Part shown: piece after piece, positions 36,035-62,333 of the stretch
Position numbering within the stretch: the first letter of the stretch is position 1
Layout: each line of letters starts with the position of its first letter
NCBI GenBank assembly: GCA_026014565.1
Contig: JAOZIB010000026.1
Coordinates: 13,829-77,828 of the forward strand
From: Candidatus Bathyarchaeum sp.
GTDB lineage: Archaea; Thermoproteota; Bathyarchaeia; Bathyarchaeales; Bathyarchaeaceae
Direction of reading: 5' to 3'
DNA length: 64,000 nt
Notes under the pieces: model-generated
What the model was told of the DNA's origin: nothing
The model's database searches: none
The model's input: the letters and a program-made list of their open reading frames with translations, nothing else
Position numbers and translations under genes: made by a program

Positions 36035-36541
36035 TTGCTGGATCGGTTAAAAATAGTTGCTTCAATAAAAAATTCGAAAAATAGATCTGAAGTTGAATTT
36101 TACAATAGATACTCAATTTTCGTTTTTGAAAGTTTAAAAAAACCACATTTTCAAAGGTATCTTAATTGGATATTAAAAAGAGAAAAAATTGACAAAGAAA
36201 AAATTAGAAACGTTCAGATCAGGGTGTTTCCGTTCATTAAAAAAAATGGTAATGGATTGGCTGGAAGGTGCTACACTAAAAAAGGAGAGATTTTGTTGTA
36301 CCCTAAGAGGCAAAAATCATGTCAAAAGATAAAACAAAGAACAGACGCAAAAGGTTTTTTGAAAGTTCTTAAGGGTCGAGCGAGAGCGGCTTTAATCCAT
36401 GAAATACTACACATTAAATACAAAAAAGATGAACGAAAAGTAAAGAGCCTTACCAAAAAATATTACGTAAATTTTTATGAGAAACTTGGTTCTAATCCAT
36501 CAGTTTTTGAAAAACATTGCAAACTGATTTTTAATTACTAA
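36035..36541 (+). CDS. Basic hypothetical protein with an HExxH motif (possible small metallopeptidase-like protein)
   Basis: TTG start. The only recognisable feature is ALIHEILHIKY (HEILH). The protein is very Lys-rich. Weak call. Confidence 0.4.
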   Translation: MLDRLKIVASIKNSKNRSEVEFYNRYSIFVFESLKKPHFQRYLNWILKREKIDKEKIRNVQIRVFPFIKKNGNGLAGRCYTKKGEILLYPKRQKSCQKIKQRTDAKGFLKVLKGRARAALIHEILHIKYKKDERKVKSLTKKYYVNFYEKLGSNPSVFEKHCKLIFNY

Positions 36542-40107: not shown

Positions 40108-40989
40108 CTATTTAACTATCAAAACTGAGCTTCGTGCATGCATGCTTATGTCATCACTTACACTACCAAGCAAATATCGACCAACACTGCTTAATCCTCT
40201 GCTTCCTACGGCGATGATGTCAACGTTTGCTTTTTTGCCTACTTTTATTATAACTTCTGCAGGACTACCAAGTTCCATCATTTTATCTATTGGAATCCCT
40301 TGAGTTTTTTGTGAAGCGTCTTTAAGGATGCATTCCCCAACGGTTCCAAGGCAATCAACCACCTGAGGTCCACCAATACGAACTAGTTTGTCCTCTTCAA
40401 CGTGCAACAGTGCCAAACTTGCGTCGTACTTCTTTGCCAGTTCAACGGAGTAGTTAAGGGCTTTTTCTGCATGTTTAGAACCGTCAACAGCCACAAGTAT
40501 TCGTTTGAGTTTGGGTTTTTTCTTAACTATAAGAACAGGACATGCTGAATGCCGAGCAACTTTTTCTGTTACACTTCCCAAGGAATATCGAGCGGATTGG
40601 TTGTCAGCGCGGTTTCCGATGACAACTAAATCGTATTTTTCTTTTTTAATAAAGTCAAGCAAGAATTCTGCAGGGTCTTCGTGGGTGACTAGCTGGGCAT
40701 CAACTGCGATTTTTTTCTCTTCAAATAGTTCTTTGGCGTTTTTTATGATTTTTTTGCCAGCATCCATGTAAGACTCGTCAAGTTTGTGTAAAATGGAGTG
40801 AGGCAACTGATACTGTGCCTTGAGTTCAGGGTGCATAAAATCGTGGGAAATTACATGAACAACTGTTACTTTTGAGTTGAATTTTTTAGCGATAGAAATA
40901 GCAAAAAGTTTAGCATGCAGACATGAATGTGAACCATCTACGGGCACAAGAATTTTCTGAAAAATTTGTTGACTGGTCATTATTGTCAC
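40108..40989 (-). CDS. Tandem universal stress protein (two UspA domains)
   Basis: Two copies of the ..ILVPVDGS.. / ..GNR/GSRG....LGSV(T/S)..V...A.C.VLIVK pattern. Confidence 0.85.
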   Translation of the reverse strand: MTIMTSQQIFQKILVPVDGSHSCLHAKLFAISIAKKFNSKVTVVHVISHDFMHPELKAQYQLPHSILHKLDESYMDAGKKIIKNAKELFEEKKIAVDAQLVTHEDPAEFLLDFIKKEKYDLVVIGNRADNQSARYSLGSVTEKVARHSACPVLIVKKKPKLKRILVAVDGSKHAEKALNYSVELAKKYDASLALLHVEEDKLVRIGGPQVVDCLGTVGECILKDASQKTQGIPIDKMMELGSPAEVIIKVGKKANVDIIAVGSRGLSSVGRYLLGSVSDDISMHARSSVLIVK

Positions 40990-41047: not shown

Positions 41048-42565
41048 CTAAGAATGCCCTAGTATATGCCTCAAATCGGTAGTTGTTAATACTCCAAGAA
41101 TTTTCTTGGGATTAGATTCGTCAACAACTGCAATTCGTCCAATTTCATAGGTTCGCATCTTCTTGAAAGCATCCAAAGCATGCTCCGTAGGATAACAAAC
41201 AACAGGGTCTTCATGTGCAATGTCTTTGACTAGAACTTCATCGCGTTTTTCCTTCTCTACCTTTGCTGCATCCTGCAAAGTAACAACCCCGACAAAATCA
41301 CCAATTGAATCCACAACTGGATAACCAGTATAGTGGTGCTTAGCCATGAAATCCAAAAGTTGACTAACAGTCAAATCAGGAGAAACAGTTTGCAGTTTCT
41401 TGGTCATTACATCTTCCACAGTAAACTTGGACAGAATTGCGATTTCGTTCAAAGGCTTGGTAGGAACAGGCACGTAGGCTTGTTTCATGTCGTTTAGTTC
41501 TTTGATTGCGGTTCGTCGTTTTTGTTGAGCAGCTTCAATAACTTGGGCAAAGGCATCAGGCTCAAGCTCGATTACTCCGGTGTTAATAACACCTGCTTCA
41601 ACTGCAGAATAAAAGAAATCTTCTCCAGCTTTAGTTCGGATAATGACAGTAGACCACTCTTTAAGAGGATAAGCAGTTCCAACAGAAATGTCCGCAAGTT
41701 CTGATGTAAAATCGGTACAGGTTTCACAGCTAGTCAAAATGTTTGGTTTAACTTCAGAGAGTGGAACTTCTATAGTTTCTTTTTCTGTGGTTACATATAG
41801 TTTATCAACGATGTCTAAACGTTTAATGTCATCTTGTTCAAGGTTATATTTTTCTTTAAGATACTTGAGCATACTACCAAAAGAAAGAGTCCAAAAACAG
41901 AAAAGCCCAATGATAACTTTGAGATTTCCTGAAATTTTGTGCTCCCATGCCTCAAGTTTACGCAAAGCCAACACGTGACAAGGAACACCAACGAAGGCAA
42001 TGTTACCTTTTCCGTATTCATAAACTGCACTTCCATAGGCTCGAGCAACTGATGAGGGAAAGAATTTACTGCCAACAGCAGAAAAAACATCGTCAGGGAC
42101 CACACCAACTAATGCTTTGGGTTTGATTGGGACGTTAGTTTCTGCCTGAGAAACAATGGCGCTGTCGATTATTCCTGTCTCTATAGCATTTGTAAGAAGG
42201 GTTGTAACTACTCCACCCCCGTGACCAAGTTTTCGCAACTCAGGGTCTGCGGCTTGAGCTAATAGGATTTTTCTGTAGTATCCAAGACCGTCTCGTTTTG
42301 TAGGGGAATCTGAAACAAACTTGAGCGTAGCACGCATCAAAGTGTCGGAGTGTGGACAAATCTCAAAACATATGGGACAAGACCCAATGTGTTCTGAGCA
42401 ATCAAAGTGTTCAACTGTGCCGTCTCCTACGGTTATTGCATGCACGGGGCATGCTGCTTCACAAGCTCCGCAGAAGGTGCAAAATCCAGAATTAATGATT
42501 TTACTTTCTAGATCATTGTATGCTATCGCATTTTCTCTTTTTGCTACCAACCATTTCCCCACCAA
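41048..42565 (-). CDS. FrhB/FpoF-like flavo-iron-sulfur protein (2x[4Fe-4S] + FrhB_FdhB N/C domains) fused to a C-terminal CBS pair
   Basis: CTFCGACEAACP and CPICFEICP are ferredoxin motifs. GHGGGVVTTLL.NAIETGIIDSAIV, IAFVGVPCHVLALRKL and CETCTDFTSELADISVG are FrhB-family blocks. The last 120 aa or so form two CBS motifs (VEDVMTKKLQTVSP.. and VKDIAHEDPVVCYP..). It lies 32 nt downstream of the nuoN-like gene on the same strand. Confidence 0.8.
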   Translation of the reverse strand: MVGKWLVAKRENAIAYNDLESKIINSGFCTFCGACEAACPVHAITVGDGTVEHFDCSEHIGSCPICFEICPHSDTLMRATLKFVSDSPTKRDGLGYYRKILLAQAADPELRKLGHGGGVVTTLLTNAIETGIIDSAIVSQAETNVPIKPKALVGVVPDDVFSAVGSKFFPSSVARAYGSAVYEYGKGNIAFVGVPCHVLALRKLEAWEHKISGNLKVIIGLFCFWTLSFGSMLKYLKEKYNLEQDDIKRLDIVDKLYVTTEKETIEVPLSEVKPNILTSCETCTDFTSELADISVGTAYPLKEWSTVIIRTKAGEDFFYSAVEAGVINTGVIELEPDAFAQVIEAAQQKRRTAIKELNDMKQAYVPVPTKPLNEIAILSKFTVEDVMTKKLQTVSPDLTVSQLLDFMAKHHYTGYPVVDSIGDFVGVVTLQDAAKVEKEKRDEVLVKDIAHEDPVVCYPTEHALDAFKKMRTYEIGRIAVVDESNPKKILGVLTTTDLRHILGHS

Positions 42566-42597: not shown

Positions 42598-44079
42598 TTA
42601 CACAGGTAATGTTGTTGCAACCGATGAAACCAAACTCAAAGCCAAATCTGGGAACAGACCCAAAACAACGATTATCACAACTAAACAATATATTGGAATG
42701 AGCAATTTCTTGGGCTCTTCAATCGGAATGTCATCTTTTGCTGGTTTTGCATAAAAGTAATGAATTACCCGCAAGAAATATGCAGACTGCAAAACAGAAT
42801 TCAACACACCAACAATAGCCAGCCAAGAAACGCTTGACTGTAAAACTGAAGTAAACACCATATATTTTGCAATAAATCCAGCAAACAAAGGCACACCGGA
42901 GAAAGACAAAGCTGCTGCGATAAAAGCTAGACTTGTCAAAGGCATTTTTCGTCCCATTCCAGACATGTCTTCTAGGGTTTCATAGCCCATGTTGCGGAAG
43001 ACACCAATTACCATGAAAGCGAGAGCAGTTTCCAATGCAGCAACAAAGAAGAAAAACAGATTGCCCATCAGACCGATAGAAGTAATGCTTGTAATTGCTA
43101 TCAGGTTGTAACCAATGTCTGCAATACAAACGTAAGAGACCATTCTTTTTACATTTTGTTGGGCGAGAGCAAACATGTTTCCGGCAATCATCGTAATTGC
43201 AGAGAAAACTGCAACAGTAAATCTCCAATCAACAATTGCAGTTGGAGTTAAGATAAACAACAAAACCCGCAATATTACATAGTAGCTGCCTTGATCCACA
43301 ATGGCAGACAAGAAAGCCGAACCAGAGTCTGGAGCGGCAGTGTATGCGTCGGGCATCCACATGTGGAAGGGCACAATTGCGGTTTCGATAGCGTAACCTG
43401 CCACAATGAAAGCGAAGGCAATCAACAAAAGTGTTGGATTTGATGTGGTTAACAGAGCTTCTTTAACTGTCCAAAAGTTCAGGGAACCTGTCAGACCGTA
43501 GATTAATGATAATCCGTAAAGGGTAGACCCAGATGCTATGATGACCATGACCAAATACTTCAAGGCAGATTCCAAAGATTCCTTAGATTTTCTGTAAGAT
43601 ACAATAAAACATGCCCCAGCAGCGGCAGCTTCCCAGAATATGAAAAGTGTAAGCAAATCGCCTGTAAAAGTGGCTGCAACTACAGCTCCAGTTACAATTA
43701 GTAAAAGAGCATAGTAACGTTCAGACAAATTCTCTTTTGAGTTGACATGCAACACACCATAAACACAAGAGATTGAACCCACTATCATGTATGCGATTAC
43801 CATGTAAACGGATACGGCGTCAATGAGAAAGCTGCTAGATAGGGACTCAAAGACCGTGTCAGCTGTAAAAACTTGGATGAATGGTTCGGGTTGGTTGTAA
43901 AATTCGTCTGCGATTCGGTAAACTCCCACGGATGCAGCAGCAAAGGTGAACAACATCCAAACGACCATAAAGTATTGAGAGTTAATTTTGGTTTTTCGTA
44001 CCAAACGTAGAAGGGGTATAGTAACTAAAGCGCAAATCGTAAAGACTATTGTAGGTAATAGAACGTCGACAATATTCAT
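42598..44079 (-). CDS. nuoN: Complex I subunit N-like antiporter-type membrane subunit
   Basis: About 14 TM segments. Proton_antipo_M-type blocks: FIFWEAAAAGACF, VPFHMWMPDAYTAAP and SYVCIADIGY. It is the last antiporter-like gene in the operon. Confidence 0.82.
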   Translation of the reverse strand: MNIVDVLLPTIVFTICALVTIPLLRLVRKTKINSQYFMVVWMLFTFAAASVGVYRIADEFYNQPEPFIQVFTADTVFESLSSSFLIDAVSVYMVIAYMIVGSISCVYGVLHVNSKENLSERYYALLLIVTGAVVAATFTGDLLTLFIFWEAAAAGACFIVSYRKSKESLESALKYLVMVIIASGSTLYGLSLIYGLTGSLNFWTVKEALLTTSNPTLLLIAFAFIVAGYAIETAIVPFHMWMPDAYTAAPDSGSAFLSAIVDQGSYYVILRVLLFILTPTAIVDWRFTVAVFSAITMIAGNMFALAQQNVKRMVSYVCIADIGYNLIAITSITSIGLMGNLFFFFVAALETALAFMVIGVFRNMGYETLEDMSGMGRKMPLTSLAFIAAALSFSGVPLFAGFIAKYMVFTSVLQSSVSWLAIVGVLNSVLQSAYFLRVIHYFYAKPAKDDIPIEEPKKLLIPIYCLVVIIVVLGLFPDLALSLVSSVATTLPV

Positions 44080-44092
44080 TGGTCTAGCCTCT

Positions 44093-45604
44093 TCACAATA
44101 TTGAAGTAACCGCGTGGATTAGGTCTATGAAAATTCCAGGGTAAATACCAAGCACCACAATAAATGCTGCTAAAGCAACCATGGAAATTGTAATCCAGAT
44201 TTTTGGGTCATATGTTTTGTTTGGGTTTTCGTCTGCTTCAGCGTCAGAGTGAGCGAATTTAATTGGCTTTTCAGGAGTTACCAAGAATATTTTCCAGAAA
44301 TACCGCAAGACATAGCCAAGACTGAAAACAGTAGCAATAAGCATCAGAATTGTAGGCACATAAAAGGCTGAATCTACACCAGCTACCCCAACTGCTCCAA
44401 CAAAGATGTGGAACTCACTGATGAAACAAGCAAATGGAGGGATGCCACCAATACTAAATGCAGCAATTGCAGAACATATGGCAGTTATGGGCATCTTGGA
44501 TGCTAATCCACCCATTTCATTGATGTTTCGAACTCCCGTTTGGTGCATAACTGCGCCAGCAGTGAGGAACAAAAGTCCTTTGCTTGCAGCGTGGTTAACT
44601 AAGTGAAGAACACCTCCAGTTATTCCTTCTGCAGAAGGGAATAGGGATAATGCAAACAAGGTGTACCCCATATGGCTGATGCTTGAGTAGGCGATTATTC
44701 GTTTGATGTCTGTTTCTGCGATGGCAAGAAAACTACCATAAAACGCGGATATAACTCCGAAGAAACTCATTGCCAGAAGGAATTCGTTTCCGGGGTTGGG
44801 TATTGCAGTGTACACTGTTCCAAGGGCTATCCTCAGAATAGCGTAACCTCCTGCACCGATGATTACTCCACTTAGCAATGCAGACATTGGGGCAGGGGCT
44901 TCTCCGTGGGCGTCGGGTAGCCACATGTGAAGGGGAACAATTGCCATTTTTACTGCGAACCCTGCAGTGAAAGATAATAAAATCCAGTTTAGGATTGCGG
45001 GGTCTTGTGTTGAAAGAAGGACTTGGGCTTCGAAAATGTCCAAGGTTCCAGTGAGCATGTAGATTGCGCCGATGCCTAGCAGGACAAATATTGCTCCGGC
45101 GTGGGTAAATATGAAGAATTTAAAGGCTGTTTTGAAGGAGTCACGGTAGCCCCATCCTCCGATGATGAAGTAGGTTGGAACCAGCATGAGTTCCCAGCAG
45201 AAGTAGAACAGCAATAGGTTTGAGGTAATGAAAACTCCAATCAGTCCAATGGTCAGCAAACTCAGTAAGGCGTAGTATTGGGGCAGGGAGCTTTTTTCTT
45301 CCATGTAGTTTATTGAGTAAATTACACATGCTGCAACTAGTATCAGTGTTGCAATTGTTAGCGACAAACTGATGCCGTCAACAAACAGTGTAAAATCGGA
45401 GCCTAACGTGGGAATCCAAGTATAGGATTCGATGTACACGTCGTTTTCGAGTACCGTAGGTACTAAAGTTAAAAGCATCGATAAGCTAGTCAAGGAAATT
45501 AATGCTAAGAATATTGCAGCAATTTTTTGGGATTTTCTTCCAATGCCAAATACTACTGGGATAGCCAGAGCAGGCAACAATAGAGCGATTAATAGTGTTT
45601 GCAT
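44093..45604 (-). CDS. nuoM: Complex I subunit M-like antiporter-type membrane subunit
   Basis: FYFCWELMLVPTYFIIGGWG, VPLHMWLPDAHGEAPAPMSALLSG and YSSISHMGY are NuoM/NdhD-type blocks. Confidence 0.85.
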   Translation of the reverse strand: MQTLLIALLLPALAIPVVFGIGRKSQKIAAIFLALISLTSLSMLLTLVPTVLENDVYIESYTWIPTLGSDFTLFVDGISLSLTIATLILVAACVIYSINYMEEKSSLPQYYALLSLLTIGLIGVFITSNLLLFYFCWELMLVPTYFIIGGWGYRDSFKTAFKFFIFTHAGAIFVLLGIGAIYMLTGTLDIFEAQVLLSTQDPAILNWILLSFTAGFAVKMAIVPLHMWLPDAHGEAPAPMSALLSGVIIGAGGYAILRIALGTVYTAIPNPGNEFLLAMSFFGVISAFYGSFLAIAETDIKRIIAYSSISHMGYTLFALSLFPSAEGITGGVLHLVNHAASKGLLFLTAGAVMHQTGVRNINEMGGLASKMPITAICSAIAAFSIGGIPPFACFISEFHIFVGAVGVAGVDSAFYVPTILMLIATVFSLGYVLRYFWKIFLVTPEKPIKFAHSDAEADENPNKTYDPKIWITISMVALAAFIVVLGIYPGIFIDLIHAVTSIL

Positions 45605-45611
45605 TTTTGTT

Positions 45612-47651
45612 TTACCTCAAAGCAGTAAATATTAATAATATTACAATCAAAAAGAACCCAAGTGTAGCCGCCAAAACAAAGTCTGGCAGGTGTCCTCGAT
45701 GAACTTTCTTTAGTTTTTCTCCTTGTTCCACTGTTTTTCCAGCGAACAGATACACCAGCTTATCCAAGAAAGTGTCAATGGTTTCGTGGGTTACTCGAGC
45801 GGTTTCGACTGTTCCACCGGCTAGTATGTAACAGAAACGATCAAGGAAAGCGTCAAGATTTTGATGAGTTTTATGGGCGGTAACTACAGCGCCACCTGCA
45901 ATAATGTACACAAACCGGTCAAGGAAAGATTCAATGTAATTCAGAGTGCCGTGGGCGAGTTTTGAAGCTCCGCCTGCAATAACATATGGGAATCGCTGTA
46001 TTGCAGCGTTTTCAATATACTTGAAGGCAAATTGCGACAACCCCATGATTCCACCGAGTATTTTATTGTAAACGGCGTCAAAATAGTAGCCGTTGGATAT
46101 AACCAAATAAAGTGGATTGTTTAAAAGACTTCTTGCGAAAACCAACGAAGTGGATCGTCTTTTGTAATAAAGATAATATGCAGTAGGAACTGCAATTGCA
46201 AGAATTATTGCAGAAGTTGCACTGGCCAAAAGTACCCCAGTCATTGAGGCTTCAGCATGTATTTCGAGATAATGTTCTAGTGGTGTTTTGAAAAAGCCCA
46301 TAACACAGGAAGCAGCAGCCAATAGGATAAGGGGAACATAAATTATTGGGCTGGGGTCATGAATGTGATGGTCCGCCAAAAATTCGGAGCGTTCTCCAAG
46401 GAAAACTTTGCATATCCATCGTATACTGTAGATTGCAGTTAGAACTGAGGTTCCAAAGATTAGTATATACAATGGACCGTTATTGGCTAGGATTATGGCT
46501 TCAAAGATTGTGTCTTTGCTCCAAAAGCCACTAAAAGGTGGAATCCCTGCAAGGGAAAAGGCTCCAATAACGCTTACAATGAAGGTTATGGGCATTGATT
46601 TTCGCAGGCCACCTAACTGGTTTAAGTCAAGGGTGTGAGTAACGTGCATTACAACACCTGCACAAAGGAACAATAAGGATTTGAAAAGGGCATGGCTGAT
46701 TACATGGAATTGGCTGGAGAACCAGCCAAGTTCAGTTCCAATTCCGAGGGCAGACATAATCATGCCAAGTTGGCTTATGGTGGAAAAAGCCAGAACTCGT
46801 TTCATGTCGTTGCTGGTTAAAGCCATTGTTGCTGCAAGAATTGCGGTGATTCCGCCAACATAAGCGACAGTTGTTAACCAGGGGGTAACAAATGAGAACA
46901 GAATGTAAATTCGTGCAACAAGGTAAATTCCAGCTTTTACCATGGTTGCACCGTGAATCAGTGCACTTGTTGGGGTAGGTCCTTCCATAGCATTTGGTAG
47001 CCAAACGTGTAATGGAACTTGGGCAGATTTTCCTACAGCCCCAATGAACATTAATATAGATACCGTCAAAGCGGGAACAGAAACATGTCCAGCCAGTATG
47101 AGTTCTTTGATTTCTAGGAAGTTGAAAGTACCAGTGTTAGTGTATAGTATGAGAATTCCTAGTAATAGGAAAATGTCTCCGACACGGGTTACGATGAAAG
47201 CTTTCATTCCAGCTTTTGCTGCTTCTGTTCGGTCGTACCAAAATCCAATAAGGGAATATGAACAAAGTCCAACTGTTTCCCAGAAGAAATACATCTGTAG
47301 GAGGTTGTTAGCCATTACTAGACCAATCATTCCTCCGACGAAAAGCAACATGAAGAAGAAGAATCTGGGTGTCGCTTTGTCTTTTTCCATGTAGTTTACT
47401 GAGTATACCATAATCAGCAGGCCTATGCAACCTGCGATGTTTGCCATCATGGTGCTTAGGGGATCAATTAGAACGCTAGCGTCTATCCCCATGGCAGGCA
47501 TCCAAGGTATGGAAAATACTTCGGCTTCACCGTGACCACTCAAAACACTTGAAAGTAATGAAAGGGTGTTTACTACTGAGATTGCAACTACGAAAACTGC
47601 ATACCATCCTACCCATTTTTTGCGAAGCTTTGCAACTAAGGGCACAAACAA
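45612..47651 (-). CDS. nuoL: Complex I subunit L-like antiporter-type subunit with an extended, internally repeated C-terminal lateral-helix region (true start probably upstream of 47651)
   Basis: MYFFWETVGLCSYSLIGFWY, VPLHVWLPNAMEGPTPTSALIHGATMV and FSTISQLG are NuoL blocks. Four to five tandem 26-aa units occupy aa 522-651. The in-frame 20 codons upstream of the TTG start read TFVPVEYAAWLCWAIPFLAS and look like part of TM1. Confidence 0.85.
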   Translation of the reverse strand: MFVPLVAKLRKKWVGWYAVFVVAISVVNTLSLLSSVLSGHGEAEVFSIPWMPAMGIDASVLIDPLSTMMANIAGCIGLLIMVYSVNYMEKDKATPRFFFFMLLFVGGMIGLVMANNLLQMYFFWETVGLCSYSLIGFWYDRTEAAKAGMKAFIVTRVGDIFLLLGILILYTNTGTFNFLEIKELILAGHVSVPALTVSILMFIGAVGKSAQVPLHVWLPNAMEGPTPTSALIHGATMVKAGIYLVARIYILFSFVTPWLTTVAYVGGITAILAATMALTSNDMKRVLAFSTISQLGMIMSALGIGTELGWFSSQFHVISHALFKSLLFLCAGVVMHVTHTLDLNQLGGLRKSMPITFIVSVIGAFSLAGIPPFSGFWSKDTIFEAIILANNGPLYILIFGTSVLTAIYSIRWICKVFLGERSEFLADHHIHDPSPIIYVPLILLAAASCVMGFFKTPLEHYLEIHAEASMTGVLLASATSAIILAIAVPTAYYLYYKRRSTSLVFARSLLNNPLYLVISNGYYFDAVYNKILGGIMGLSQFAFKYIENAAIQRFPYVIAGGASKLAHGTLNYIESFLDRFVYIIAGGAVVTAHKTHQNLDAFLDRFCYILAGGTVETARVTHETIDTFLDKLVYLFAGKTVEQGEKLKKVHRGHLPDFVLAATLGFFLIVILLIFTALR

Positions 47652-47712
47652 TGATGCAAGGAACGGAATTGCCCAACATAACCATGCAGCATATTCTACT
47701 GGAACAAACGTT

Positions 47713-48042
47713 TTAGGCGTCCTCCTCTACTTGTTTGGTTTGTTCCGTTTCCTCAGCTTGTGATTCTGAAAGGTCGCGAATGTCACGGATGTTTAGTTTT
47801 TTGTAAATTGCAATAGCAAGGGCAAGAGCAACAGCGGTTACGCAGGCATCAACAGACAAGGCAAGAATCATGAAAGGCTGACCTAATGAATTGTCCATTA
47901 AGGAGCCGAATACAACAAAGTTCATTGTTGCGGCTGCACTCATCATTTCGATGGCAATCAGCATTTTGATGAGATCATGTTTTGTGACCAGCCCGATTAT
48001 TCCAATTGCCAGAAGAGTGAGAGAAAGGATAACATAGTCCAT
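47713..48042 (-). CDS. nuoK: Complex I subunit K-like
   Basis: Three TM segments in about 100 aa, with a conserved Glu in IAIEMM (TM2). It sits between J and L. Confidence 0.82.
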   Translation of the reverse strand: MDYVILSLTLLAIGIIGLVTKHDLIKMLIAIEMMSAAATMNFVVFGSLMDNSLGQPFMILALSVDACVTAVALALAIAIYKKLNIRDIRDLSESQAEETEQTKQVEEDA

Positions 48043-48507
48043 CTATTTTCGCCTCCATTCTTCTCGCAACAATAGAATTACGCCGATTGCGGCAGTTAAT
48101 ACAACTATACCTTGGGCTAGAACATCAATTGCCCTTAAGTCCCATATTGTTTGGGATAAAGAAATTTCCATTGATTCAATAACTGAACCTGTTTCTATAG
48201 TTCCAACAAGCATAGGAACACAAAGAATGGCAGAAGCAATTATTGCAAGAAACTTGGTTTTCGTGGAAGTTTTTTCATCACGTTTTGTTGTTAAACTATC
48301 ACCTGCCAACAGAAAAATTGCGGCAGTTCCAACACCCAGTGCCAACTGGAAAATTGCAGCAAAAGGAGCGTTTAAGTTGAAGTATAATAATGCGAGCAAA
48401 AGCATCAGTGTGCTTAAGGATAAAACTGAAGCAATTGTCTCTTTGAGGTAAATGGCTAAAACTGCAGAAACTATCATTCCGATAGCAAGGATTGTTTCAA
48501 ACAACAT
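48043..48507 (-). CDS. nuoJ: Complex I subunit J-like
   Basis: 154 aa, 4-5 TM segments, positioned between I and K. There are few sequence motifs, so the call rests mainly on order and topology. Confidence 0.7.
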   Translation of the reverse strand: MLFETILAIGMIVSAVLAIYLKETIASVLSLSTLMLLLALLYFNLNAPFAAIFQLALGVGTAAIFLLAGDSLTTKRDEKTSTKTKFLAIIASAILCVPMLVGTIETGSVIESMEISLSQTIWDLRAIDVLAQGIVVLTAAIGVILLLREEWRRK

Positions 48508-48929
48508 TACTTGCTAGCCTCCTTTTGAGATAGTTTTCTTTCAGGCAGAAACTCTTCTGGATTTACTGAAAGGTCTTTTGTGTCTGTGGTGGACATCTCA
48601 TAATTTGGAGATAGCTCAATTGCGTTCCTTGGACATGTTTCTGCACATTGATAACAGAATATGCAACGGTCAAGGAAAAATTTCGGCATTCGTTTTCCAG
48701 AAACTTCTACAAGTTCAATTGCATTTGCTGGACAGTCTCGTTCACACAGTCCACAACTGATGCACTTTATTGGGTCTAATGTATGTCTGCCTCTGTATCC
48801 TTCGGGTGCTTGAACTGAAACAAATGGATACGGTCGAGTAAAGGGCTTCTTGAAAAGACATGAGCCCATGTCCTTGATTAATGCGGGTAATCTTCGTTTT
48901 TTTGGCATATCATTTCCTCCTTTAACCAA
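48507..48929 (-). CDS. nuoI: Complex I subunit I-like 2x[4Fe-4S] ferredoxin subunit
   Basis: CISCGLCERDCP and CIFCYQCAETCP. Confidence 0.9.
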   Translation of the reverse strand: MVKGGNDMPKKRRLPALIKDMGSCLFKKPFTRPYPFVSVQAPEGYRGRHTLDPIKCISCGLCERDCPANAIELVEVSGKRMPKFFLDRCIFCYQCAETCPRNAIELSPNYEMSTTDTKDLSVNPEEFLPERKLSQKEASK

Positions 48930-49914
48930 TCACCGACCGCAATAGGGGTTCGACAATTATTGTAAGAGCAAGAGAAAGAAGTGACAATGGAATCAACAGT
49001 TTCCAGTTTCCATGGACAACTTGGTCGATACGTAATCGAGCAGAAACATTGCCGATATATTCAAGAACAAAAACCACACCAAGGGTTTTTACCATAAACC
49101 AGAAGGCATACCATATTTCAGGGGGACCAAAGAATATGGGTCCATGTGCTCCGCCTAAGAATAACATTGTTACCAAAGAGGCCCCAACCAAGAACTGGAA
49201 ATCTTCTCCAAGTTTTATGAAGGCAAGTTTTCTTCCACTGTATTCAGTTTCATAGCCACCAACGATTTCAGTTTCGGCGTGAGGAATATCGAAGGGGTCT
49301 TTTTCTAATTCAGCCTGTAAAACAATAATAAATAACGCGCAACACCATGGAGTCAAAGCAAGAAACGGAATATTTTGACTTGCCGTGATGGTGGTAATTG
49401 ACAAACTTTTGGCCAGATAAGCAGGGCCAATTGCAAGAAGAACAAGAGGAATATCATAACCAAGGAATTGGGTTAAAACGCGAGTTGCACCAATTCCACT
49501 GTAAGGATTCAATGAAGACCAGCCAGACAGGAAAAGTGCAAAGTTAGCAAGAGTCAGCAAAAGCATGACTAAAAGTAAATCGCCCTCAAAACTTGAGCCT
49601 AAAATAACATTTGAGCCATCAATTGGAATAAAGAAGAGGGCAAACACATACAAAGAAAATGCGAGAATGGGAGCTACAATAAACAGTGCTTTGTTGGTTT
49701 GTTTTGGTGTGATGTCTTCTTTTGAAAATAGTTTGATGTAATCTGCAAGGGGCTGAAGAATACCAAAAGGACCAGCATAGGACGGTCCCATACGGTTTTG
49801 GAATCTTGCAGTCAATTTTCTTTCAAACCAGTCAAAGAAAAGTACAAGAACTAACAGAAACAGGAAACCTGGAAACACCAGAGTTCTCACAAGAAAAACT
49901 AAGTCCAGTGCCAA
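48922..49914 (-). CDS. nuoH: Complex I subunit H-like membrane subunit
   Basis: ERKLTARFQNRMGPSYAGPFGILQPLADYIKLFSKED, PFDIPHAETEIVGGYETEYSG and RLRIDQ are NuoH/HycD-type blocks. Confidence 0.9.
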   Translation of the reverse strand: MALDLVFLVRTLVFPGFLFLLVLVLFFDWFERKLTARFQNRMGPSYAGPFGILQPLADYIKLFSKEDITPKQTNKALFIVAPILAFSLYVFALFFIPIDGSNVILGSSFEGDLLLVMLLLTLANFALFLSGWSSLNPYSGIGATRVLTQFLGYDIPLVLLAIGPAYLAKSLSITTITASQNIPFLALTPWCCALFIIVLQAELEKDPFDIPHAETEIVGGYETEYSGRKLAFIKLGEDFQFLVGASLVTMLFLGGAHGPIFFGPPEIWYAFWFMVKTLGVVFVLEYIGNVSARLRIDQVVHGNWKLLIPLSLLSLALTIIVEPLLRSVIG

Positions 49915-51588
49915 CTAGATAAGCACCTTCCTGTTTTTTTGGTTATTTACGTCGTCTAGGCTCCAATGCCATTTCTTATTGTTGTTAGTGTCAATGAATG
50001 CCATACGATCCGTGCATGAAAAGCATGGATCCAAACTGCCCATAACTGAAGGAATGTCAGCAACATAACCACCACGTATTGCATCTGGAAATGCTACAAG
50101 GTTTGCCAATGTTGGAGCACGAACTTTAACGCGGTATGGGTATGCGCTTCCATCACTTTTAACATAATGAATAAGAGCACCTCGGGGAGCTTCAACACGG
50201 CTGGTAGCTTCACCTTCAGGGATTTTTCGTTGAACCCTTACACGTATCTTTCCATCTGGAAGGTTAGCAAGAGCATATTCTACAATGTTTATACTTTCTA
50301 CGACTTCATCAACGCGAACCATAAGGCGAGCCCAAGTGTCACAGTCTGTGTAACTAATTACGTTAAAAGGAATTTCGTCATACGCAGCATAAGGTTCATC
50401 TTTTCGAACATCAGAAGCAACACCAGACCCACGCAAAACAGGACCAACAACACACAGTTTCAAAGCATCTTCCCTGCTTAAGACACCAACACCTTCGGTT
50501 CTAAGCCGTAAAGTTGCGTCTTCTTCGAAGACATTCTTGTAGAAAACTGCACGTTTTCTGACGTCTTTAAGAGTTTTTAGGGTTTTTTCGATTGTACTTG
50601 GAGCAATATCTCGGCGTACACCACCAATAGTGTTAAAGCCACTCATCAAACGGTTACCTGTTATTCGTTCAACTATGTCCATTATTGGTTCGCGGTCACG
50701 CCAAACATGCTGGAACAAAGATTCAAAACCCAACAAGTGACCAGCAACACCAAGCAATAATAGGTGACTGTGAATTCGGTTCAGTTCATGAACAATTGTG
50801 CGATAATACTGTGCACGGGGTGGAGTTTCCACGTTTGCTATGTCTTCTACTGCTTGACAGAAAACTGTTGTATGAGCAGCATTGCAGATACCACAGATTC
50901 GTTCCACCAAGTAAACATCTTGGAAATACATCATTTTTTCTGCAGCTTTTTCGATGCCACGATGAACGTATCCAAGGCGTGCGTTAACGTCAACTACTTT
51001 TTCACCATCAAGGGTGAATGAGAATTTTTCGGGTTCGTGTAAAACAGGGTGCTGAGGACCAACAATAACATTAACCAACGACTCAGAAGCCTCACTCACA
51101 GATTCAGGTTGGGACTCGTCTTTGGACATGAAAACGTCTTCTTGATGTTCTGGGGCTTGCCAATCTCTGCGAAGAGGATAATTTCCTTGAGGCCAACTTT
51201 CAGGGAGCAACAAGCGTTCCATGTTAGGGTGGCCTTCAAAAGTTACGCCTAACAGGTCGAAGACTTCACGCTCATACAAATTAGCGCCAGGAATAAGGTC
51301 ACAAATCGATTTGGTTACAGGATTTTCTTTGGGAACCCGAATCTTCAGAGTAACTGTTCCACCACAAATCATGTGATAGTTTAGTTCAATTTCTTCCCCC
51401 AAATCAACTCCAGTAATAGTTGAAAGTATTGTTTCCTCAACCTGTTTCAAGAGCAATGAAATTGCCTCTCTGTGATTTTCAGGTTTAAGAAAAACGTAAG
51501 CTTTCCTTGGCCTAGGGACCTTTAACTCATCAATCGAATCAGCCAAATTGTTCTTTAACACTTCTAATGCTTTTTCAAATCTTTCCAT
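49915..51588 (-). CDS. Fused NuoC-like + NuoD-like subunit that retains [NiFe]-hydrogenase large-subunit ligand motifs (HycE/HyfG-like)
   Basis: NuoC part: ANLYEREVFDLLGVTFEGHP..PLRRDW. Large-subunit part: GPQHP, LGYVHRGIEK, RICGICNAAH (aa 230-239, nt 50872-50901), EAPRGALIHY and DPCFSCTDR (aa 520-528, nt 50005-50031). A 29-aa tail follows. I verified the Cys codons on the sequence. Confidence 0.85.
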   Translation of the reverse strand: MERFEKALEVLKNNLADSIDELKVPRPRKAYVFLKPENHREAISLLLKQVEETILSTITGVDLGEEIELNYHMICGGTVTLKIRVPKENPVTKSICDLIPGANLYEREVFDLLGVTFEGHPNMERLLLPESWPQGNYPLRRDWQAPEHQEDVFMSKDESQPESVSEASESLVNVIVGPQHPVLHEPEKFSFTLDGEKVVDVNARLGYVHRGIEKAAEKMMYFQDVYLVERICGICNAAHTTVFCQAVEDIANVETPPRAQYYRTIVHELNRIHSHLLLLGVAGHLLGFESLFQHVWRDREPIMDIVERITGNRLMSGFNTIGGVRRDIAPSTIEKTLKTLKDVRKRAVFYKNVFEEDATLRLRTEGVGVLSREDALKLCVVGPVLRGSGVASDVRKDEPYAAYDEIPFNVISYTDCDTWARLMVRVDEVVESINIVEYALANLPDGKIRVRVQRKIPEGEATSRVEAPRGALIHYVKSDGSAYPYRVKVRAPTLANLVAFPDAIRGGYVADIPSVMGSLDPCFSCTDRMAFIDTNNNKKWHWSLDDVNNQKNRKVLI

Positions 51589-51591
51589 ATC

Positions 51592-52020
51592 TCATCCCTT
51601 CAATTTCGCTAACAACTTAGCAACACCTTGTAAGATTGCTTCGGGTTTTGGAGGACAACCCGGAACGTAAACATCAACTGGAATTATTTCATCTAAACGT
51701 CCACTAATGTTGTAACAGTTCTGAAAGATGCCCCCCGAACACGAACACGCACCAACAGCGACAACAAATTTCGGAGAAGGCATCTGCTCATAAATCATTT
51801 TCAGACGAGGGGCGCATTGTCTGGTCACAGGTCCAGTTACAACTAAAACGTCTGCATGACGGGGAGAAGGCTCAAGTTTTGCTCCAAAGCGTTCCACATC
51901 GTAACGGGGAGTAAGTAGTGATACTACTTCAATGTCGCATCCGTTACAGGCACCAGTATTAAAATGAAGAAGCCAAGGTGAGTTTCGTCTTGCCCATTTT
52001 AGTAGTCCTAGGTCGGGCAT
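51592..52020 (-). CDS. nuoB: NuoB-like / group 4 hydrogenase small subunit
   Basis: GACNGCDIE, GACSCSGG and PGCPPKPE supply the four Cys for the proximal [4Fe-4S] cluster. The first motif is of the hydrogenase (xCNGCxIE) type rather than the complex I CCxxE type. Confidence 0.88.
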   Translation of the reverse strand: MPDLGLLKWARRNSPWLLHFNTGACNGCDIEVVSLLTPRYDVERFGAKLEPSPRHADVLVVTGPVTRQCAPRLKMIYEQMPSPKFVVAVGACSCSGGIFQNCYNISGRLDEIIPVDVYVPGCPPKPEAILQGVAKLLAKLKG

Positions 52021-52021
52021 T

Positions 52022-52345
52022 TTAGTTGCCTCCGAGAAGCAGTAAGTCGGCTGCTAAGATTATTCCAACATAAATCAGTAATGTGAAAGGGTTGATCATT
52101 TCAAGGGCCAATGCGGCAAAGGCTAAAATCAGTGCAGGTGAATCTATGATTACAAAAAATATTAGATACTTATACAAAGTAACATTAACCAACAAGCGCT
52201 TAGAACTGACCTTTTCTCCGCAAGCATACATTTCATTTTTATCTTTGCTTTCAGAAGATTTGGGTATCAGAACTTTACTGCCCAGATAAATCAGCGTTGC
52301 AAGAACCAGAATAATCAAAAATGCAATAAGAGATTCGGTAAGCAT
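52022..52345 (-). CDS. nuoA: Complex I subunit A-like
   Basis: 107 aa with 3 TM segments. MYACGEKV..YLIFFVIIDSPALILAF resembles the NuoA pattern YECGe..fy..a.lF.ifD.E. It is the first gene of the operon. Confidence 0.68.
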   Translation of the reverse strand: MLTESLIAFLIILVLATLIYLGSKVLIPKSSESKDKNEMYACGEKVSSKRLLVNVTLYKYLIFFVIIDSPALILAFAALALEMINPFTLLIYVGIILAADLLLLGGN

Positions 52346-52768
52346 TGTTTGTCATCAACCATTCACAGTGTTTGTAAGGTACTTTCAGTAGCCATTGTTG
52401 ACAAAATGTTTACAGTGTTTATATCAGTTTTTAACGATACTGTGTTAAAACAGTGTTTTGTCCCTAGTCTCGACGTAAACCAAAGCACCTTAACAGTAAT
52501 AACTGCCAATTGTGAGATTGCGTAAGCCACTAGGTTTGTGTGCGTTTCTGATTACCTCCGCTTTTTGAACGGGAAGTAAAAACTTAGGATTTAAGGGTTC
52601 CGTATAGTAAAATAAAACATGAACAATAAATTATAATAATTTAAATTAAATTAAATAATTGAAAAATCATATTATAAAAGAAACAAACCACAATGGCAAA
52701 CAATAAAAAGTTCACAAAAAGTTTAAAATTTTCCAAAAATTAGAAAACAAAAATGATCCAAACACAAA

Positions 52769-54276: not shown

Positions 54277-54615
54277 TTATGTTATTTTTTTGAAGTGCAT
54301 AGTTTGTCCGAACATTTCTAATTCGTAAATTTGGTTTACGTCAAACTGGATTCCTAGTTGTTCGTATTCCAATTCAGTAAGAAACAAAATCATTTTAGGA
54401 ACAGCGAACTGGCTTGTTTGGTTTGCAACCATAGGGAGTTGTTGTTGCAGGCTTTTCATTACTTCTTGTACCATACGTGCTTCTTCGGTTGCAGGTTTGA
54501 CAGCAAAACGAGGGATTACACGGTCTTCAATTAGTTCGATGCGTTTGCCTAGGTTACCTTCAGGGTCTTTTGTTGATTCGATTTTTTGAACTCGGACACG
54601 CGTCATAGCAATCAC
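54277..54615 (-). CDS. Hypothetical protein (112 aa)
   Basis: Clean ORF with protein-like composition. No motif was recognised. Confidence 0.45.
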   Translation of the reverse strand: MIAMTRVRVQKIESTKDPEGNLGKRIELIEDRVIPRFAVKPATEEARMVQEVMKSLQQQLPMVANQTSQFAVPKMILFLTELEYEQLGIQFDVNQIYELEMFGQTMHFKKIT

Positions 54616-60568: not shown

Positions 60569-61039
60569 ATGAAAAGACTCCTAAAAAATAAAAAAGCTCT
60601 AAGCCCAGTAGTCGCAGCAATCATCTTGATCGCCGTAACAGTAGCAGTATCCATCGCAGTCGCAGCATGGATGGGCTCACTAACCATCGGATTCATGGAA
60701 ACAGCAGAAGTAACAATTACTAATGTTGAATTCATCAGTCCAGTAGGAACAGCCGATGATTGGATTGAAGTTACACTCATCAACACAGGTACTAGTGACG
60801 CCACTGTCAATGGAGCAAAAGTAAATGGAGATACTTACGATATCGCACCAGAAAATTCTGCGGATGGTTCAACACTTGAAGCCGGAGGCAACTCAATCAC
60901 ATTTATAGTTGACAGCGACGACGTAGAAGAATTTAATGACGGCAGCAAATACAGCATCAGCATTTACGGAACTGATGGTTCATTGCTATCCTCTAACACA
61001 GTTACAGCTTCAGTCAAACAACTGACAACAACAACTTAG
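60569..61039 (+). CDS. Archaeal type IV pilin-like protein with class III signal peptide
   Basis: MKRLLKNKKA|LSPVVAAIILIAVTVAVSIAVAAW has a basic leader, a KKA/L prepilin-peptidase-type site and a hydrophobic helix, as in the archaeal Pilin_N pattern. GGAGGGA lies upstream. Confidence 0.75.
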   Translation: MKRLLKNKKALSPVVAAIILIAVTVAVSIAVAAWMGSLTIGFMETAEVTITNVEFISPVGTADDWIEVTLINTGTSDATVNGAKVNGDTYDIAPENSADGSTLEAGGNSITFIVDSDDVEEFNDGSKYSISIYGTDGSLLSSNTVTASVKQLTTTT

Positions 61040-61122
61040 GCTTTGAATCAGGAACTTTCAACTTGAATTTGGGTTGGCTTTGCCGCCCTTTTTTCCTTAT
61101 CTTTGGAGGTATAAATAACAAA

Positions 61123-61548
61123 ATGGTAGTAGAATTAAAAGAATATGAATCCGCAGTCGACATAGCAAAGGCTATGGACGATGACATTTCAAAAACTAAA
61201 AGTGTACTAGGTGAATACCTACGCAGACTTGATTCCATACGGAACTTGGCCGAGAGATCAAAAAAGATACGAGAAGTAGTCTTCAAGCTCGCTGGCAAAA
61301 AGGCAGCCCAAGAAAGTCTGGGCGAAATGACCGTTGGGGACTTGAGCGTAATCCTAGATGCTAACCCATTCCATGAACTAACAGCCATCGAGCAAGTAGT
61401 TCGCAGTCAACAAGACAGACTCTTGGTGCTCCAAAAAGCACGAGAAGCACTGAACTGGGTTGACCAAATCGGGGACACTGAAGGACTCAAGTACATAGTG
61501 CTAGAAAGCGACGGGGTTCCAGAACAAATACTGCTAAAGATCTCTTAG
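61123..61548 (+). CDS. Hypothetical helical/coiled-coil protein (141 aa)
   Basis: The likely start is ATG 61123, with GGAGGT 13 nt upstream. The track start at 61063 adds a hydrophobic non-genic leader. No family was recognised. It is the first gene of a three-gene unit with the two Roadblock-like genes. Confidence 0.5.
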   Translation: MVVELKEYESAVDIAKAMDDDISKTKSVLGEYLRRLDSIRNLAERSKKIREVVFKLAGKKAAQESLGEMTVGDLSVILDANPFHELTAIEQVVRSQQDRLLVLQKAREALNWVDQIGDTEGLKYIVLESDGVPEQILLKIS

Positions 61549-61569
61549 ATCGGGCAGGAGTTGTAAAAA

Positions 61570-62322
61570 ATGAACAGGGACCCATACGCTACAGCATTAA
61601 ACAACGCTTTAACTGAGATTCAAAAAGCGTACCCTGACATCACTCACTCTTTCATTTGTAGTGAAGACGGTTCAATAATTGCTGGGGAAACAGAAAACGA
61701 CCCCAAACTATTGAACAAAGTGTCAGACTCTTTTGAAGAACTAAAAACAAATGCAAAAACAATCGGTAACATAACAAGTTATTCAGTTAACTGCGAAAAA
61801 GGCAAACTAAACATGTCAAACGTTAATGGCATGTACCTCATGTTGGCAACAAATGGCAATGCTGATGATGCTCAAATTTATTCCTTAAGTCATGTGGTTA
61901 TTCCACCACTGATGAGAACTTTGCAATCCTTTGCGGGTCAAACAAGTGCTCCAAGAACACCAGAAAATGGACCAGTAAACGCTCAAACTAACTTTGGAAA
62001 CATTCAAACTAATGCTGCCATGCACCTCCAAACACAAGCAATAATGAACCTAATAGTAAACCCCTTGAGTGGCTTCTTTGACGGCGACGCAGTTCAAGTG
62101 GACAAAAAAACACTAGACGACTGGAGTGACATCGAAGCAGATGGAGAAGAAATCCAACAAGTCAAAATCGAAACAATCGAAGGAAAATCAACAATATGCC
62201 AAGTAAAAAAGATCACTGTTGGAAACATGAAAAGCAAAGGCTTTATTCGGATGCCAGCAAAAATCTGCAGCGCACTTAACCTCAAAGGCGGCGACAGGGT
62301 AAACGTCTCACCGAATCTGTAG
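61570..62322 (+). CDS. Roadblock/LC7 (MglB)-like domain + low-complexity linker + C-terminal AbrB/SpoVT-like domain
   Basis: The N-terminal 100 aa or so (LTEIQKAYPDITHSFICSEDGSIIAG..GKLNMSNVNGMYLMLATNGN) fit the Roadblock alpha-beta-alpha pattern. The C-terminus KGFIRMPAKICSALNLKGGDRVNVSP fits the AbrB swapped-hairpin pattern. By eye only. Confidence 0.5.
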   Translation: MNRDPYATALNNALTEIQKAYPDITHSFICSEDGSIIAGETENDPKLLNKVSDSFEELKTNAKTIGNITSYSVNCEKGKLNMSNVNGMYLMLATNGNADDAQIYSLSHVVIPPLMRTLQSFAGQTSAPRTPENGPVNAQTNFGNIQTNAAMHLQTQAIMNLIVNPLSGFFDGDAVQVDKKTLDDWSDIEADGEEIQQVKIETIEGKSTICQVKKITVGNMKSKGFIRMPAKICSALNLKGGDRVNVSPNL

Positions 62323-62333
62323 AAGGTGTTTGT

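Follow-up and report, generated by a model that had tools for sequence, protein, structure and literature searches.

A probable Hfo-type energy-converting [NiFe]-hydrogenase locus of a Candidatus Bathyarchaeum and the F420-type flavoprotein gene linked to it

A 64,000-nucleotide stretch of contig JAOZIB010000026.1 from a Candidatus Bathyarchaeum sp. (hereafter the window, whose positions are used for all coordinates) carries ten same-strand genes in the order A-B-CD-H-I-J-K-L-M-N on the minus strand (52345-42598 in the list of open reading frames, ORFs). We conclude, with good confidence, that these genes specify an energy-converting group 4 [NiFe]-hydrogenase of the Hfo ('Fpo-like') type. The Hfo enzyme type itself is not new, whereas the linkage of an F420-type flavoprotein gene, designated FrhB-CBS below and previously described as unlinked, is. 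The core identification is much better supported than the part that concerns FrhB-CBS, and an F420-linked Hfo is something that the locus may represent and that we offer as a modest lead.

The identification of the catalytic module comes from the fused CD subunit, whose features are as follows.

49915..51588, minus strand: HfoCD, a fused NuoC-like protein and [NiFe]-hydrogenase large subunit of 557 aa (Pfam Complex1_30kDa, NiFeSe_Hases for an N-terminal segment, and Complex1_49kDa)
50872..50901, minus strand: L1 motif RICGICNAAH, aa 230-239 (Cys232, Cys235), placed by alignment with HycE and MbhL
50005..50031, minus strand: L2 motif DPCFSCTDR, aa 520-528 (Cys522, Cys525), placed by alignment with HycE and MbhL
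49918..50004, minus strand: C-terminal extension of 29 aa, MAFIDTNNNKK..., placed by alignment with the start of the HycE tail

HfoCD matches both group 4 motif patterns, C[GS][ILV]C[AGNS]xxH at the L1 ligand position and [DE][PL]Cx[AGST]Cx[DE][RL] (L2) near the C-terminus. Its L1 aligns with RVCGICGFAH of HycE (7Z0S_E) and RMCGICSFSH of MbhL (6CFW_L), and its L2 with DPCYSCTDR and DPCLSCTDR of the same two proteins, so that both CxxC pairs coincide residue for residue with the HycE/MbhL ligand cysteines. By contrast, the same positions read DRMDYIS.../DPVVGETDR in Aquifex NuoCD and DRIEYLGG.../DFVMSDVDR in E. coli NuoCD. The quinone-site tyrosine of E. coli NuoCD, Tyr273 in EYLGG, has its aligned place between the two cysteines of L1, where HfoCD has Gly. 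NuoD/FpoD subunits are marked by lost ligands and the presence of this tyrosine, whereas all four Cys are in place in CD. L1 and L2 were both present in each of the 120 close homologues, which also all carry tails of 24-33 aa; the tail length is 0 aa in a lineage that has FrhB-CBS upstream of the operon (described below). A chance match or a relic was considered as an explanation of the cysteines and rejected: they are invariant across 43-92% identity, with the flanking residues and the tail also kept. As far as can be judged from sequence, the CD cysteine pairs are Ni-Fe ligands.

The C-terminal extension of HycE is removed by HycI. The beginning of the HfoCD tail (MAFIDT...) aligns with the beginning of the HycE extension (MTVVDVRKKK), and a HycI-type endopeptidase presumably cuts off the 29-aa tail as the enzyme matures. 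In the upstream-FrhB lineage (L021, L024, L030, L060-L107), CD ends exactly at DPCFSCTDR. Tail-bearing and tail-less lineages would thus imply protease-dependent and protease-independent maturation, respectively.

Sequence ranking agrees with the motif evidence. In a PDB sequence search HycE (7Z0S_E) was the best match of CD with 337 bits (1.9e-99), MbhL (6CFW_L) scored 285 bits (1e-83), and every NuoCD, Nqo4 or 49-kDa subunit scored at most 263 bits. With NCBIfam models, CD reached 339.9 against a cut-off of 600 for FpoD, 325 against 459 for NuoD TIGR01962, and, in a narrow miss, 355.8 against 360 for NuoD PRK06075. An exhaustive search of 1.8 billion cluster representatives retrieved 14,974 CD relatives. 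The closest cluster was 60% identical and the second only 43%, indicating that CD forms a distinct clade, and almost all of the roughly 45 nearest among the best 150 cluster representatives carry both motifs. A D-domain tree, built by neighbour-joining and therefore a distance-based arrangement with few named references rather than a HydDB or maximum-likelihood classification, joined the window D and that of Candidatus Bathyarchaeum tardum to P0243/L019 and then to the CDs of L021 and L024, with all of these inside the cysteine-bearing sequences. E. coli HycE and HyfG fell together in a separate cysteine-bearing clade, and E. coli NuoCD stood among motif-less sequences at the opposite end. The L1 of L024, CGICNACH, is identical to the motif printed for the Hfo of Bathy-6 Bathyarchaeia, and the window D may belong to the clade of that Hfo.

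One member of this tree has an unexpected label. L019 (CAYTTK010000009.1) is labelled as a Pirellulales metagenome-assembled genome (MAG) and contains a complete Hfo-type cluster, with a CD that is 61% identical to that of the window, carries CGICNVSH / DPCFACMDR and a 24-aa tail, and has a FrhB-like gene about 4 kb upstream. The contig is probably archaeal and mis-binned; horizontal transfer is less likely.

The other subunits of the cluster are listed here in gene order, together with the region upstream of the operon.

52346..52768, minus strand: AT-rich, non-coding upstream region of 423 nt (no ORF of at least 60 aa), presumed to be the operon promoter region
52022..52345, minus strand: HfoA, NuoA/FpoA-like membrane protein of 107 aa (Pfam Oxidored_q4, 31.8 bits against a cut-off of 23.3; hydrophobic segments)
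51592..52020, minus strand: HfoB, NuoB/hydrogenase small subunit-like, 142 aa (Pfam Oxidored_q6, 9e-36)
48922..49914, minus strand: HfoH, NuoH/MbhM-like, 330 aa (Pfam NADHdh, 5.8e-90)
48507..48929, minus strand: HfoI, NuoI/MbhN-like 2x[4Fe-4S] ferredoxin-type protein of 140 aa (Pfam Fer4 families)
48043..48507, minus strand: HfoJ, NuoJ-like, 154 aa (Pfam Oxidored_q3, 38.5 bits against a cut-off of 33.2)
47713..48042, minus strand: HfoK, NuoK-like, 109 aa (Pfam Oxidored_q2, 3e-19)
45612..47651, minus strand: HfoL, NuoL-like, antiporter-type, 679 aa counted from a TTG codon (Pfam Proton_antipo_N and Proton_antipo_M)
44093..45604, minus strand: HfoM, NuoM-like, antiporter-type, 503 aa (Pfam Proton_antipo_M, 8e-70)
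42598..44079, minus strand: HfoN, NuoN-like, antiporter-type, 493 aa (Pfam Proton_antipo_M, 1e-56)

Every product from A to N matches its expected complex I/Fpo Pfam family above the gathering score, and the core subunits A, B, C, D, H, I, J, K, L, M and N are all present in Fpo order in one cluster, with C and D fused. Neighbouring genes are separated or overlap by 0-13 nt except for K and L, whose gap of 61 nt shrinks to about 1 nt if the L start is placed as in orthologues. HfoB carries the motifs GACNGCDIE, GACSCSGG and PGCPP, which provide cysteines for a proximal [4Fe-4S] cluster (Cys25 and Cys28 in GACNGC, Cys92 and Cys94 in GACSC, and Cys122 in GCPP), and HfoI has two CxxCxxCxxxCP motifs and NCBIfam similarity to NuoI / HyfH. 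The key charged residues of the antiporter-like subunits of E. coli complex I are kept completely in L and largely in M. HfoL keeps all of those of NuoL (E144, D178, K229, H334, H338, K342, K399, D400); HfoM keeps NuoM E144, K234 and E407, with K265 unmatched in a low-identity pairwise alignment; and HfoN keeps NuoN E133 and K395, with K217 and K247 unmatched in an alignment of 26% identity. In HfoK, Glu32 corresponds to Glu36 of E. coli NuoK, and NuoK Glu72 aligns with Val68 in a pairwise alignment.

A sequence-only reading of this stretch had proposed the ten-gene order together with its coordinates and motifs, a CD cysteine set at the L1/L2 ligand positions, and a hydrogenase module on a complete complex-I-type membrane arm. 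The ORFs and Pfam matches confirm the order, coordinates and motifs; the exact alignment with HycE and MbhL confirms the ligand positions; PDB ranking and the neighbour-joining tree place CD nearer to hydrogenases than to NuoD/FpoD; and ligands, ranking and tree agree with a hydrogenase module on a complete complex I/Fpo-type arm. Related genomes, which that reading had suggested surveying, keep the same gene order in all related loci, and synteny extends over 20 genome loci, among them that of B. tardum M17C-01 (complete genome CP122380.1), with which the cobalamin genes of the window are also syntenic. The window CD shares 89% identity with the CD of B. tardum; for the CDs of other Bathyarchaeia MAGs the figure is 69-91%.

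The same reading had also presented the architecture as a novel intermediate on the way to complex I, and here it did not hold, as this architecture is already a described subgroup, a case that the reading itself had named as counting against its claim. Hfo was published as the 11-subunit Fpo-like [NiFe] hydrogenase of Bathy-6 Bathyarchaeia, its genes organised as in Fpo/Nuo and its L1/L2 motifs intact, was classed by HydDB as subgroup 4g (clade 4g-6), was noted to have counterparts in Hfo-like clusters from Pyrodictium delaneyi as well as Ca. Methanomethylicus, and was argued to bridge the divide that separates energy-converting hydrogenases from complex I (Loh, Herve & Brune 2021, PMC7886697). 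The locus studied here is probably a Bathyarchaeum (Bathy-8) member of this published kind. It shares with Bathy-6 Hfo the subunit set, the Fpo/Nuo order and the absence of NuoEFG, and differs from it in several respects. The motifs are CGICNAAH and DPCFSCTDR instead of CGICNACH and D.CFSCTDR; CD of the window type has a C-terminal extension of 24-33 aa, whereas it ends in ...CTDR in Bathy-6-like loci; the window L has extra 26-aa helix units, whereas none are reported for the published Bathy-6 Hfo; and the window cluster includes FrhB-CBS and a universal-stress-protein (Usp) gene, whereas Bathy-6 Hfo was described without an F420 module and with an unlinked FrhB. The last point is a difference from the described Hfo and not an exclusion from it, the absence of an F420 module being a reported and not a defining trait; FrhB-CBS also adjoins clusters in Bathy-6-like loci.

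The B. tardum paper (2023) cites Hfo for the 'Nuo' cluster of that genome (PMC10477458). Its supplementary table merges two loci, WGM88881-88890 and WGM88731-88739, of which WGM88881-88890 is the orthologue of the window operon; there WGM88888 is given only as 'nuoC' and nuoJ as 'ND'. A J-type gene is present in the window although the KEGG-based B. tardum annotation reports nuoJ as not found, and WGM88888.1 is the true orthologue of the window CD, with RICGICNAAH / DPCFSCTDR. We considered whether that paper had already displayed the motifs of this protein and rejected this, as its Fig. S3 uses WGM88738 (CGICSHSH / D.CMSCADR) from the second locus.

Other complexes share some features with the locus and differ from it in others. 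The Fpo complex of Methanosarcina and the Fpo-like 11-subunit complexes of Methanothrix and Methanomassiliicoccales have the order A-B-C-D-H-I-J-K-L-M-N as in the window, but FpoD has lost the Ni-Fe ligands, which are intact in HfoCD, and reduces methanophenazine. MBH of Pyrococcus furiosus (6CFW) has the same group 4 catalytic module, with MbhL, J, K, N and M corresponding to D, B, C, I and H, but it combines one antiporter-like subunit with an Mrp-type Na+ module in another gene order and is without the NuoA/J/L/M/N set (PMC7886697). In E. coli Hyc (7Z0S) and hydrogenase 4 (Hyf), HycE and HyfG are fused NuoC-NuoD proteins like HfoCD, and the HycE extension begins similarly; however, Hyc receives its input from formate dehydrogenase via HycB/F, the membrane part consists of HycC/D (or HyfB-F) without NuoA/J and in another gene order, and HycE and HyfG form a clade in the neighbour-joining tree that is separate from the window CD.

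The gene cluster does not end with N. Past 42598 it extends into two further co-directional genes.

41048..42565, minus strand: FrhB-CBS protein of about 500 aa (Pfam Fer4, FrhB_FdhB_N, FrhB_FdhB_C and CBS)
40108..40989, minus strand: tandem Usp protein of 293 aa (Pfam Usp twice, 1e-54)

That the operon lacks an electron-input module, as the sequence-only reading had supposed, is therefore only half right: a Pfam scan of the long non-overlapping ORFs of the window found no NuoE/F/G-type genes, but a FpoF/FrhB-like gene does stand in the cluster. FrhB-CBS starts 32 nt past N on the same strand (a gap of at most 32-47 nt), and the Usp gene follows 58 nt downstream of it. The protein consists of an N-terminal 2x[4Fe-4S] ferredoxin domain (cysteines 29/32/35/39 and 56/63/66/70), a FrhB/FpoF-type flavin F420-reductase domain with one [4Fe-4S] cluster (cysteines 196/223/280/283; FrhB_FdhB_N and FrhB_FdhB_C matches of 4e-13 and 1e-36), and a C-terminal CBS pair, and all twelve cysteines are invariant in 40 homologues. 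[quoted passage not shown] Ethanoperedens, with aa 17-349 aligned to residues 10-338 of CODH zeta; FrhB, the FwdI F420-reductase subunit (8RJA_E) and Fsr come next. In that CODH, the N-terminal ferredoxin domain of zeta holds the F420-reductase module on the enzyme and provides its wiring to F420 (PMC11493965).

The linkage of FrhB-CBS to Hfo genes was examined in genomes and metagenomes. The order N-FrhBCBS-Usp was present in all ten genome loci that reach past N. Eighty metagenome loci were fetched by profile, of which 53 were informative. Among FrhB-CBS proteins at least 66% identical to that of the window, N lies immediately upstream in every locus with enough upstream sequence (21/21), and in the group of 50-60% identity 22 of 32 informative loci are linked to Hfo genes. 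In 20 of these 22, FrhB-CBS lies upstream of A-B-CD-H... on the same strand at about 0.3-1.3 kb, often preceded by Usp, and in the other 2 it lies after N or M. Overall, FrhB-CBS is linked to Hfo clusters in 43/53 informative loci in two arrangements, and single-locus look-ups with Pfam-annotated neighbours gave the same linkage picture. Linked clusters with a complete CD gene all keep the L1 and L2 motifs. The lineage with the upstream arrangement has CGICNACH or CGICNSCH as L1 and a CD without a tail, and the lineage with the downstream arrangement has the tail; the label 'Bathy-6-like' for the distant FrhB-CBS loci is based only on the L1 motif. The Usp gene is outermost relative to FrhB-CBS in both arrangements, N-FrhBCBS-Usp and Usp-FrhBCBS-A (the latter in several of L024, L029, L030, L060, L062, L070, L075 and L107), and in L021 and L025, which have the upstream arrangement, a DUF1622 gene lies between FrhB-CBS and A.

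From its gene linkage and domain layout, FrhB-CBS is a candidate electron-input subunit of Hfo. It resembles FpoF, the FrhB-family input subunit of true Fpo, in having an N-terminal ferredoxin domain and differs from it in the CBS pair, which FpoF is without. CODH zeta and FwdI of Ca. Ethanoperedens (8RIU, 8RJA; PMC11493965) share its layout of N-terminal 2x[4Fe-4S] and FrhB-type FAD/[4Fe-4S] domains, and a group 4 'Ehi' hydrogenase flanked by frhB and proposed to oxidise F420H2 was described from Methanonezhaarchaeia in 2025 (PMC12700198). The idea of a FrhB module that rewires a ferredoxin-type enzyme to F420 is common to these cases and to the one put forward here for Hfo; FrhB-CBS would serve another host enzyme, and its CBS pair is an addition. 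A 2024 Bathy-6 paper moreover draws 'FpoF' together with the Fpo-like complex. The FrhB-CBS linkage is thus a modest extension of existing ideas and not a new concept.

In the mechanism that we propose, the HfoI-HfoB clusters would carry electrons between the Ni-Fe site, where H+/H2 reacts, and a low-potential carrier in the cytoplasm, with the Ni-Fe site sitting where complex I binds quinone, and the redox reaction would be coupled to ion translocation via the membrane arm (H, A, J, K, L, M, N). Either direction would be possible. H2 evolution from reduced ferredoxin could build an ion gradient; run in reverse, the enzyme could spend the gradient on reducing ferredoxin with H2 to feed the archaeal Wood-Ljungdahl pathway, a use proposed by Loh et al. 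(PMC7886697). Judged from gene linkage, FrhB-CBS would act as a plug-in input/output module analogous to FpoF that links the complex to F420 or another carrier, much as the F420-reductase subunits dock on CODH and Fwd of Ca. Ethanoperedens. The CBS pair and Usp, both adenine-nucleotide-binding folds, could then give adenine-nucleotide-dependent control.

The same cluster could instead be read as an Fpo/Nuo-like respiratory complex that takes electrons from ferredoxin or F420H2 and hands them to a membrane acceptor or some other non-H2 acceptor, with the cysteines either a relic or binding something other than Ni-Fe. The gene order and subunit set of Fpo/Nuo, the public annotation 'NADH-quinone oxidoreductase subunit C', the small shortfall of CD from the NuoD cut-off (355.8 against 360), a FpoF-like gene in the cluster as in true Fpo, and the depiction of the Bathyarchaeia complex as Fpo-like in several papers all fit such a complex. 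We nevertheless regard it as very unlikely, because the four ligand cysteines and their R..C..C...H and DPC..C..R context are invariant in lineages 43-92% identical, a HycE-like cleavable tail is kept, Gly occupies the position of the NuoCD quinone-site tyrosine (E. coli Y273), CD is nearer to HycE and MbhL than to any NuoD, and Bathy-6 is without methanophenazine biosynthesis genes (PMC7886697). Several points do weigh against an Hfo-type hydrogenase. The Pfam scan of the long non-overlapping window ORFs found neither hypA-F nor hycI, hyp genes are also absent from the list in the B. tardum supplement (PMC10477458), and the unmatched NuoN K217/K247 and NuoK E72 suggest that some channels may differ from those of complex I. 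Energetics has to be considered as well. Ferredoxin has a potential of about -0.45 to -0.5 V, H+/H2 of -0.414 V and F420 of -0.34 V, and electron transfer from ferredoxin to H2 yields far less energy than that from NADH to quinone. With so small a yield the four-channel arm cannot pump at complex I stoichiometry while evolving H2: at standard potentials the ferredoxin-to-H2 reaction pays for only 1-2 ions per electron pair, and F420H2-to-H2 is near equilibrium. [quoted passage not shown] Finally, no subgroup 4g/Hfo enzyme has been biochemically characterised (PMC7886697).

If an Hfo-type hydrogenase is accepted for the core, it is still quite possible that FrhB-CBS and Usp are mere neighbours of it, with FrhB-CBS a soluble protein that works with HdrABC or as a ferredoxin:F420 oxidoreductase, and ferredoxin the sole partner of Hfo. 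Adjacency is not physical association. Ten of the 32 informative loci in the 50-60% identity group, about one third of these distant homologues, have no Hfo gene although at least 1.5 kb is available on both sides, and a complete Bathy-6 MAG has a 'FpoF'-labelled gene far from its Fpo-like genes. The protein also scores far below the NCBIfam cut-offs for FpoF (107.6 against 475) and FrhB (TIGR03289, 170.8 against 331.5; PRK09325, 189.5 against 269), which makes it a separate subfamily with a CBS pair, and its AlphaFold2 (AF2) model has a mean predicted local distance difference test score (pLDDT) of 48, with the CBS pair alone confident. Some FrhB-family enzymes, such as chlorophyll reductases, use ferredoxin, and HCAR is among the PDB matches of FrhB-CBS. 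For Bathy-6, FpoFO was stated to be absent and the F420H2 source to be unclear, and a lone FrhB was suggested to act with HdrABC (PMC7886697). The complete B. tardum genome was reported to be without cofC, cofD, cofG and cofH, with Mtd and Mer present (PMC10477458), so that F420 as the substrate of FrhB-CBS is uncertain. By contrast, the linkage survives rearrangement: one lineage has FrhB-CBS downstream of N and the other has it upstream of A, but always on the same strand (43/53 informative loci). The closest solved homologue is a docked subunit that is anchored by the same N-terminal ferredoxin domain. These two observations argue for FrhB-CBS as a part of Hfo.

The L subunit of the window differs from its relatives at its beginning and is expanded near its end. 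L orthologues have 699 aa and begin MFVPVEYAAWLCW... at an ATG that follows GAGGAGG, whereas the window has ACG (47711-47709, minus strand) at this site, just past the K stop. The earliest canonical start is the TTG at 47651, which leaves 20 N-terminal residues fewer, and the same short form of L occurs in P0406. Sequence variation, a non-canonical start or an error of sequencing could each account for the ACG. An AF2 model of HfoL has the NdhF/NuoL fold by Foldseek with a template-modelling (TM) score of about 0.75-0.8. The expansion lies in the lateral-helix region.

45690..46001, minus strand: four tandem 26-residue units, HfoL aa 551-654, detected by offset-26 self-similarity

In order, the units read IQRFPYVIAGGASKLAHGTLNYIESF, LDRFVYIIAGGAVVTAHKTHQNLDAF, LDRFCYILAGGTVETARVTHETIDTF and LDKLVYLFAGKTVEQGEKLKKVHRGH. 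The offset-26 self-score of 154 compares with -65 +/- 13 in shuffled sequences, none of which reached 154 (0/2000), and the distance from the 15th to the last transmembrane helix is about 170 residues in HfoL against about 85 in E. coli NuoL. A single unit is the canonical number for L subunits; archaeal relatives have 1 (620-aa Bathyarchaeia L subunits), 3, 4 or 5, and one relative has an exact duplicate. In the AF2 model aa 524-650 form long helices, although pLDDT stays under 50 from aa 587 to 660. According to the account given in PMC9040806, a 26-residue insertion in the lateral helix (HL) was tied by Chadwick et al. (2018) to one extra pumping subunit in the '2M' complex I of Nitrospira and in Complex_I_3 of Ca. 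Manganitrophaceae. The L-type lateral-helix insertion of these complexes has the same period as the HfoL repeat, but they combine one insertion with one extra pump, whereas Hfo has three extra units and genes for only L, M and N. The copy-number-variable units bear on how such complexes set the number of their pumping modules.

A bolder arrangement would join these observations, and we consider it rather unlikely. Hfo would be a 12-13-component, ion-coupled membrane F420:H2 oxidoreductase that is gated by adenine nucleotides through FrhB-CBS and Usp, and its L helix, with the three additional units, would clamp more than three antiporter-like modules. If true, such an F420:H2 machine would supply or dispose of the F420H2 of the Wood-Ljungdahl pathway that was left unexplained by Loh et al. 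(PMC7886697).

The remainder of the window contains several features of other kinds. A NikR-type nickel-responsive regulator (25710-26180, plus strand; NikR_C 2.6e-27) lies about 16 kb from the hydrogenase operon and may be relevant to the nickel supply of [NiFe] enzymes. The region 881-34000 is devoted to cobalamin and tetrapyrroles, with a GluTR-CbiX-CbiC fusion of 849 aa, methylases of the CbiD, E, T, L, F, G and H types, two CobN-type chelatases (1246 and 1230 aa), a ChlI/D-like ATPase-VWA protein, CbiZ, CbiB, and a Fe/B12-type ABC transporter whose binding protein of 995 aa has a triple periplasmic-binding domain. An Arcadin-1 homologue (54277-54615, minus strand; 7e-21) stands beside acylphosphatase and SurE genes, an arrangement that is kept upstream of the Hfo operon in related loci; Arcadin-1 is a component of the crenactin-associated cytoskeleton cluster. 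ORFs of 116-250 aa at 60569-62684 (several of them consecutive) and 36035-36541, all on the plus strand, had no Pfam match at 1e-5, and tRNA and Rfam scans of the window gave no matches.

Beyond what the published papers contain, this analysis adds the FrhB-CBS/Usp module, the difference in CD tails between lineages, the repeat-expanded lateral helix of L and a correction of the B. tardum annotation. In the literature, Hfo-type enzymes already count as the nearest present-day counterpart to the transition from energy-converting hydrogenases to complex I, and Hfo has likewise been proposed there as the key energy-coupling site of Bathyarchaeia, which are among the most abundant archaea in sediments. 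The window presents the Hfo orthologue of the cultivated genus Bathyarchaeum, with WGM88888 as the counterpart of the fused CD, and as B. tardum grows in enrichment culture, biochemical tests are feasible. In these archaea, Hfo may be tied to the F420 pool through the conserved FrhB-CBS/Usp module, which would then be the link so far missing.

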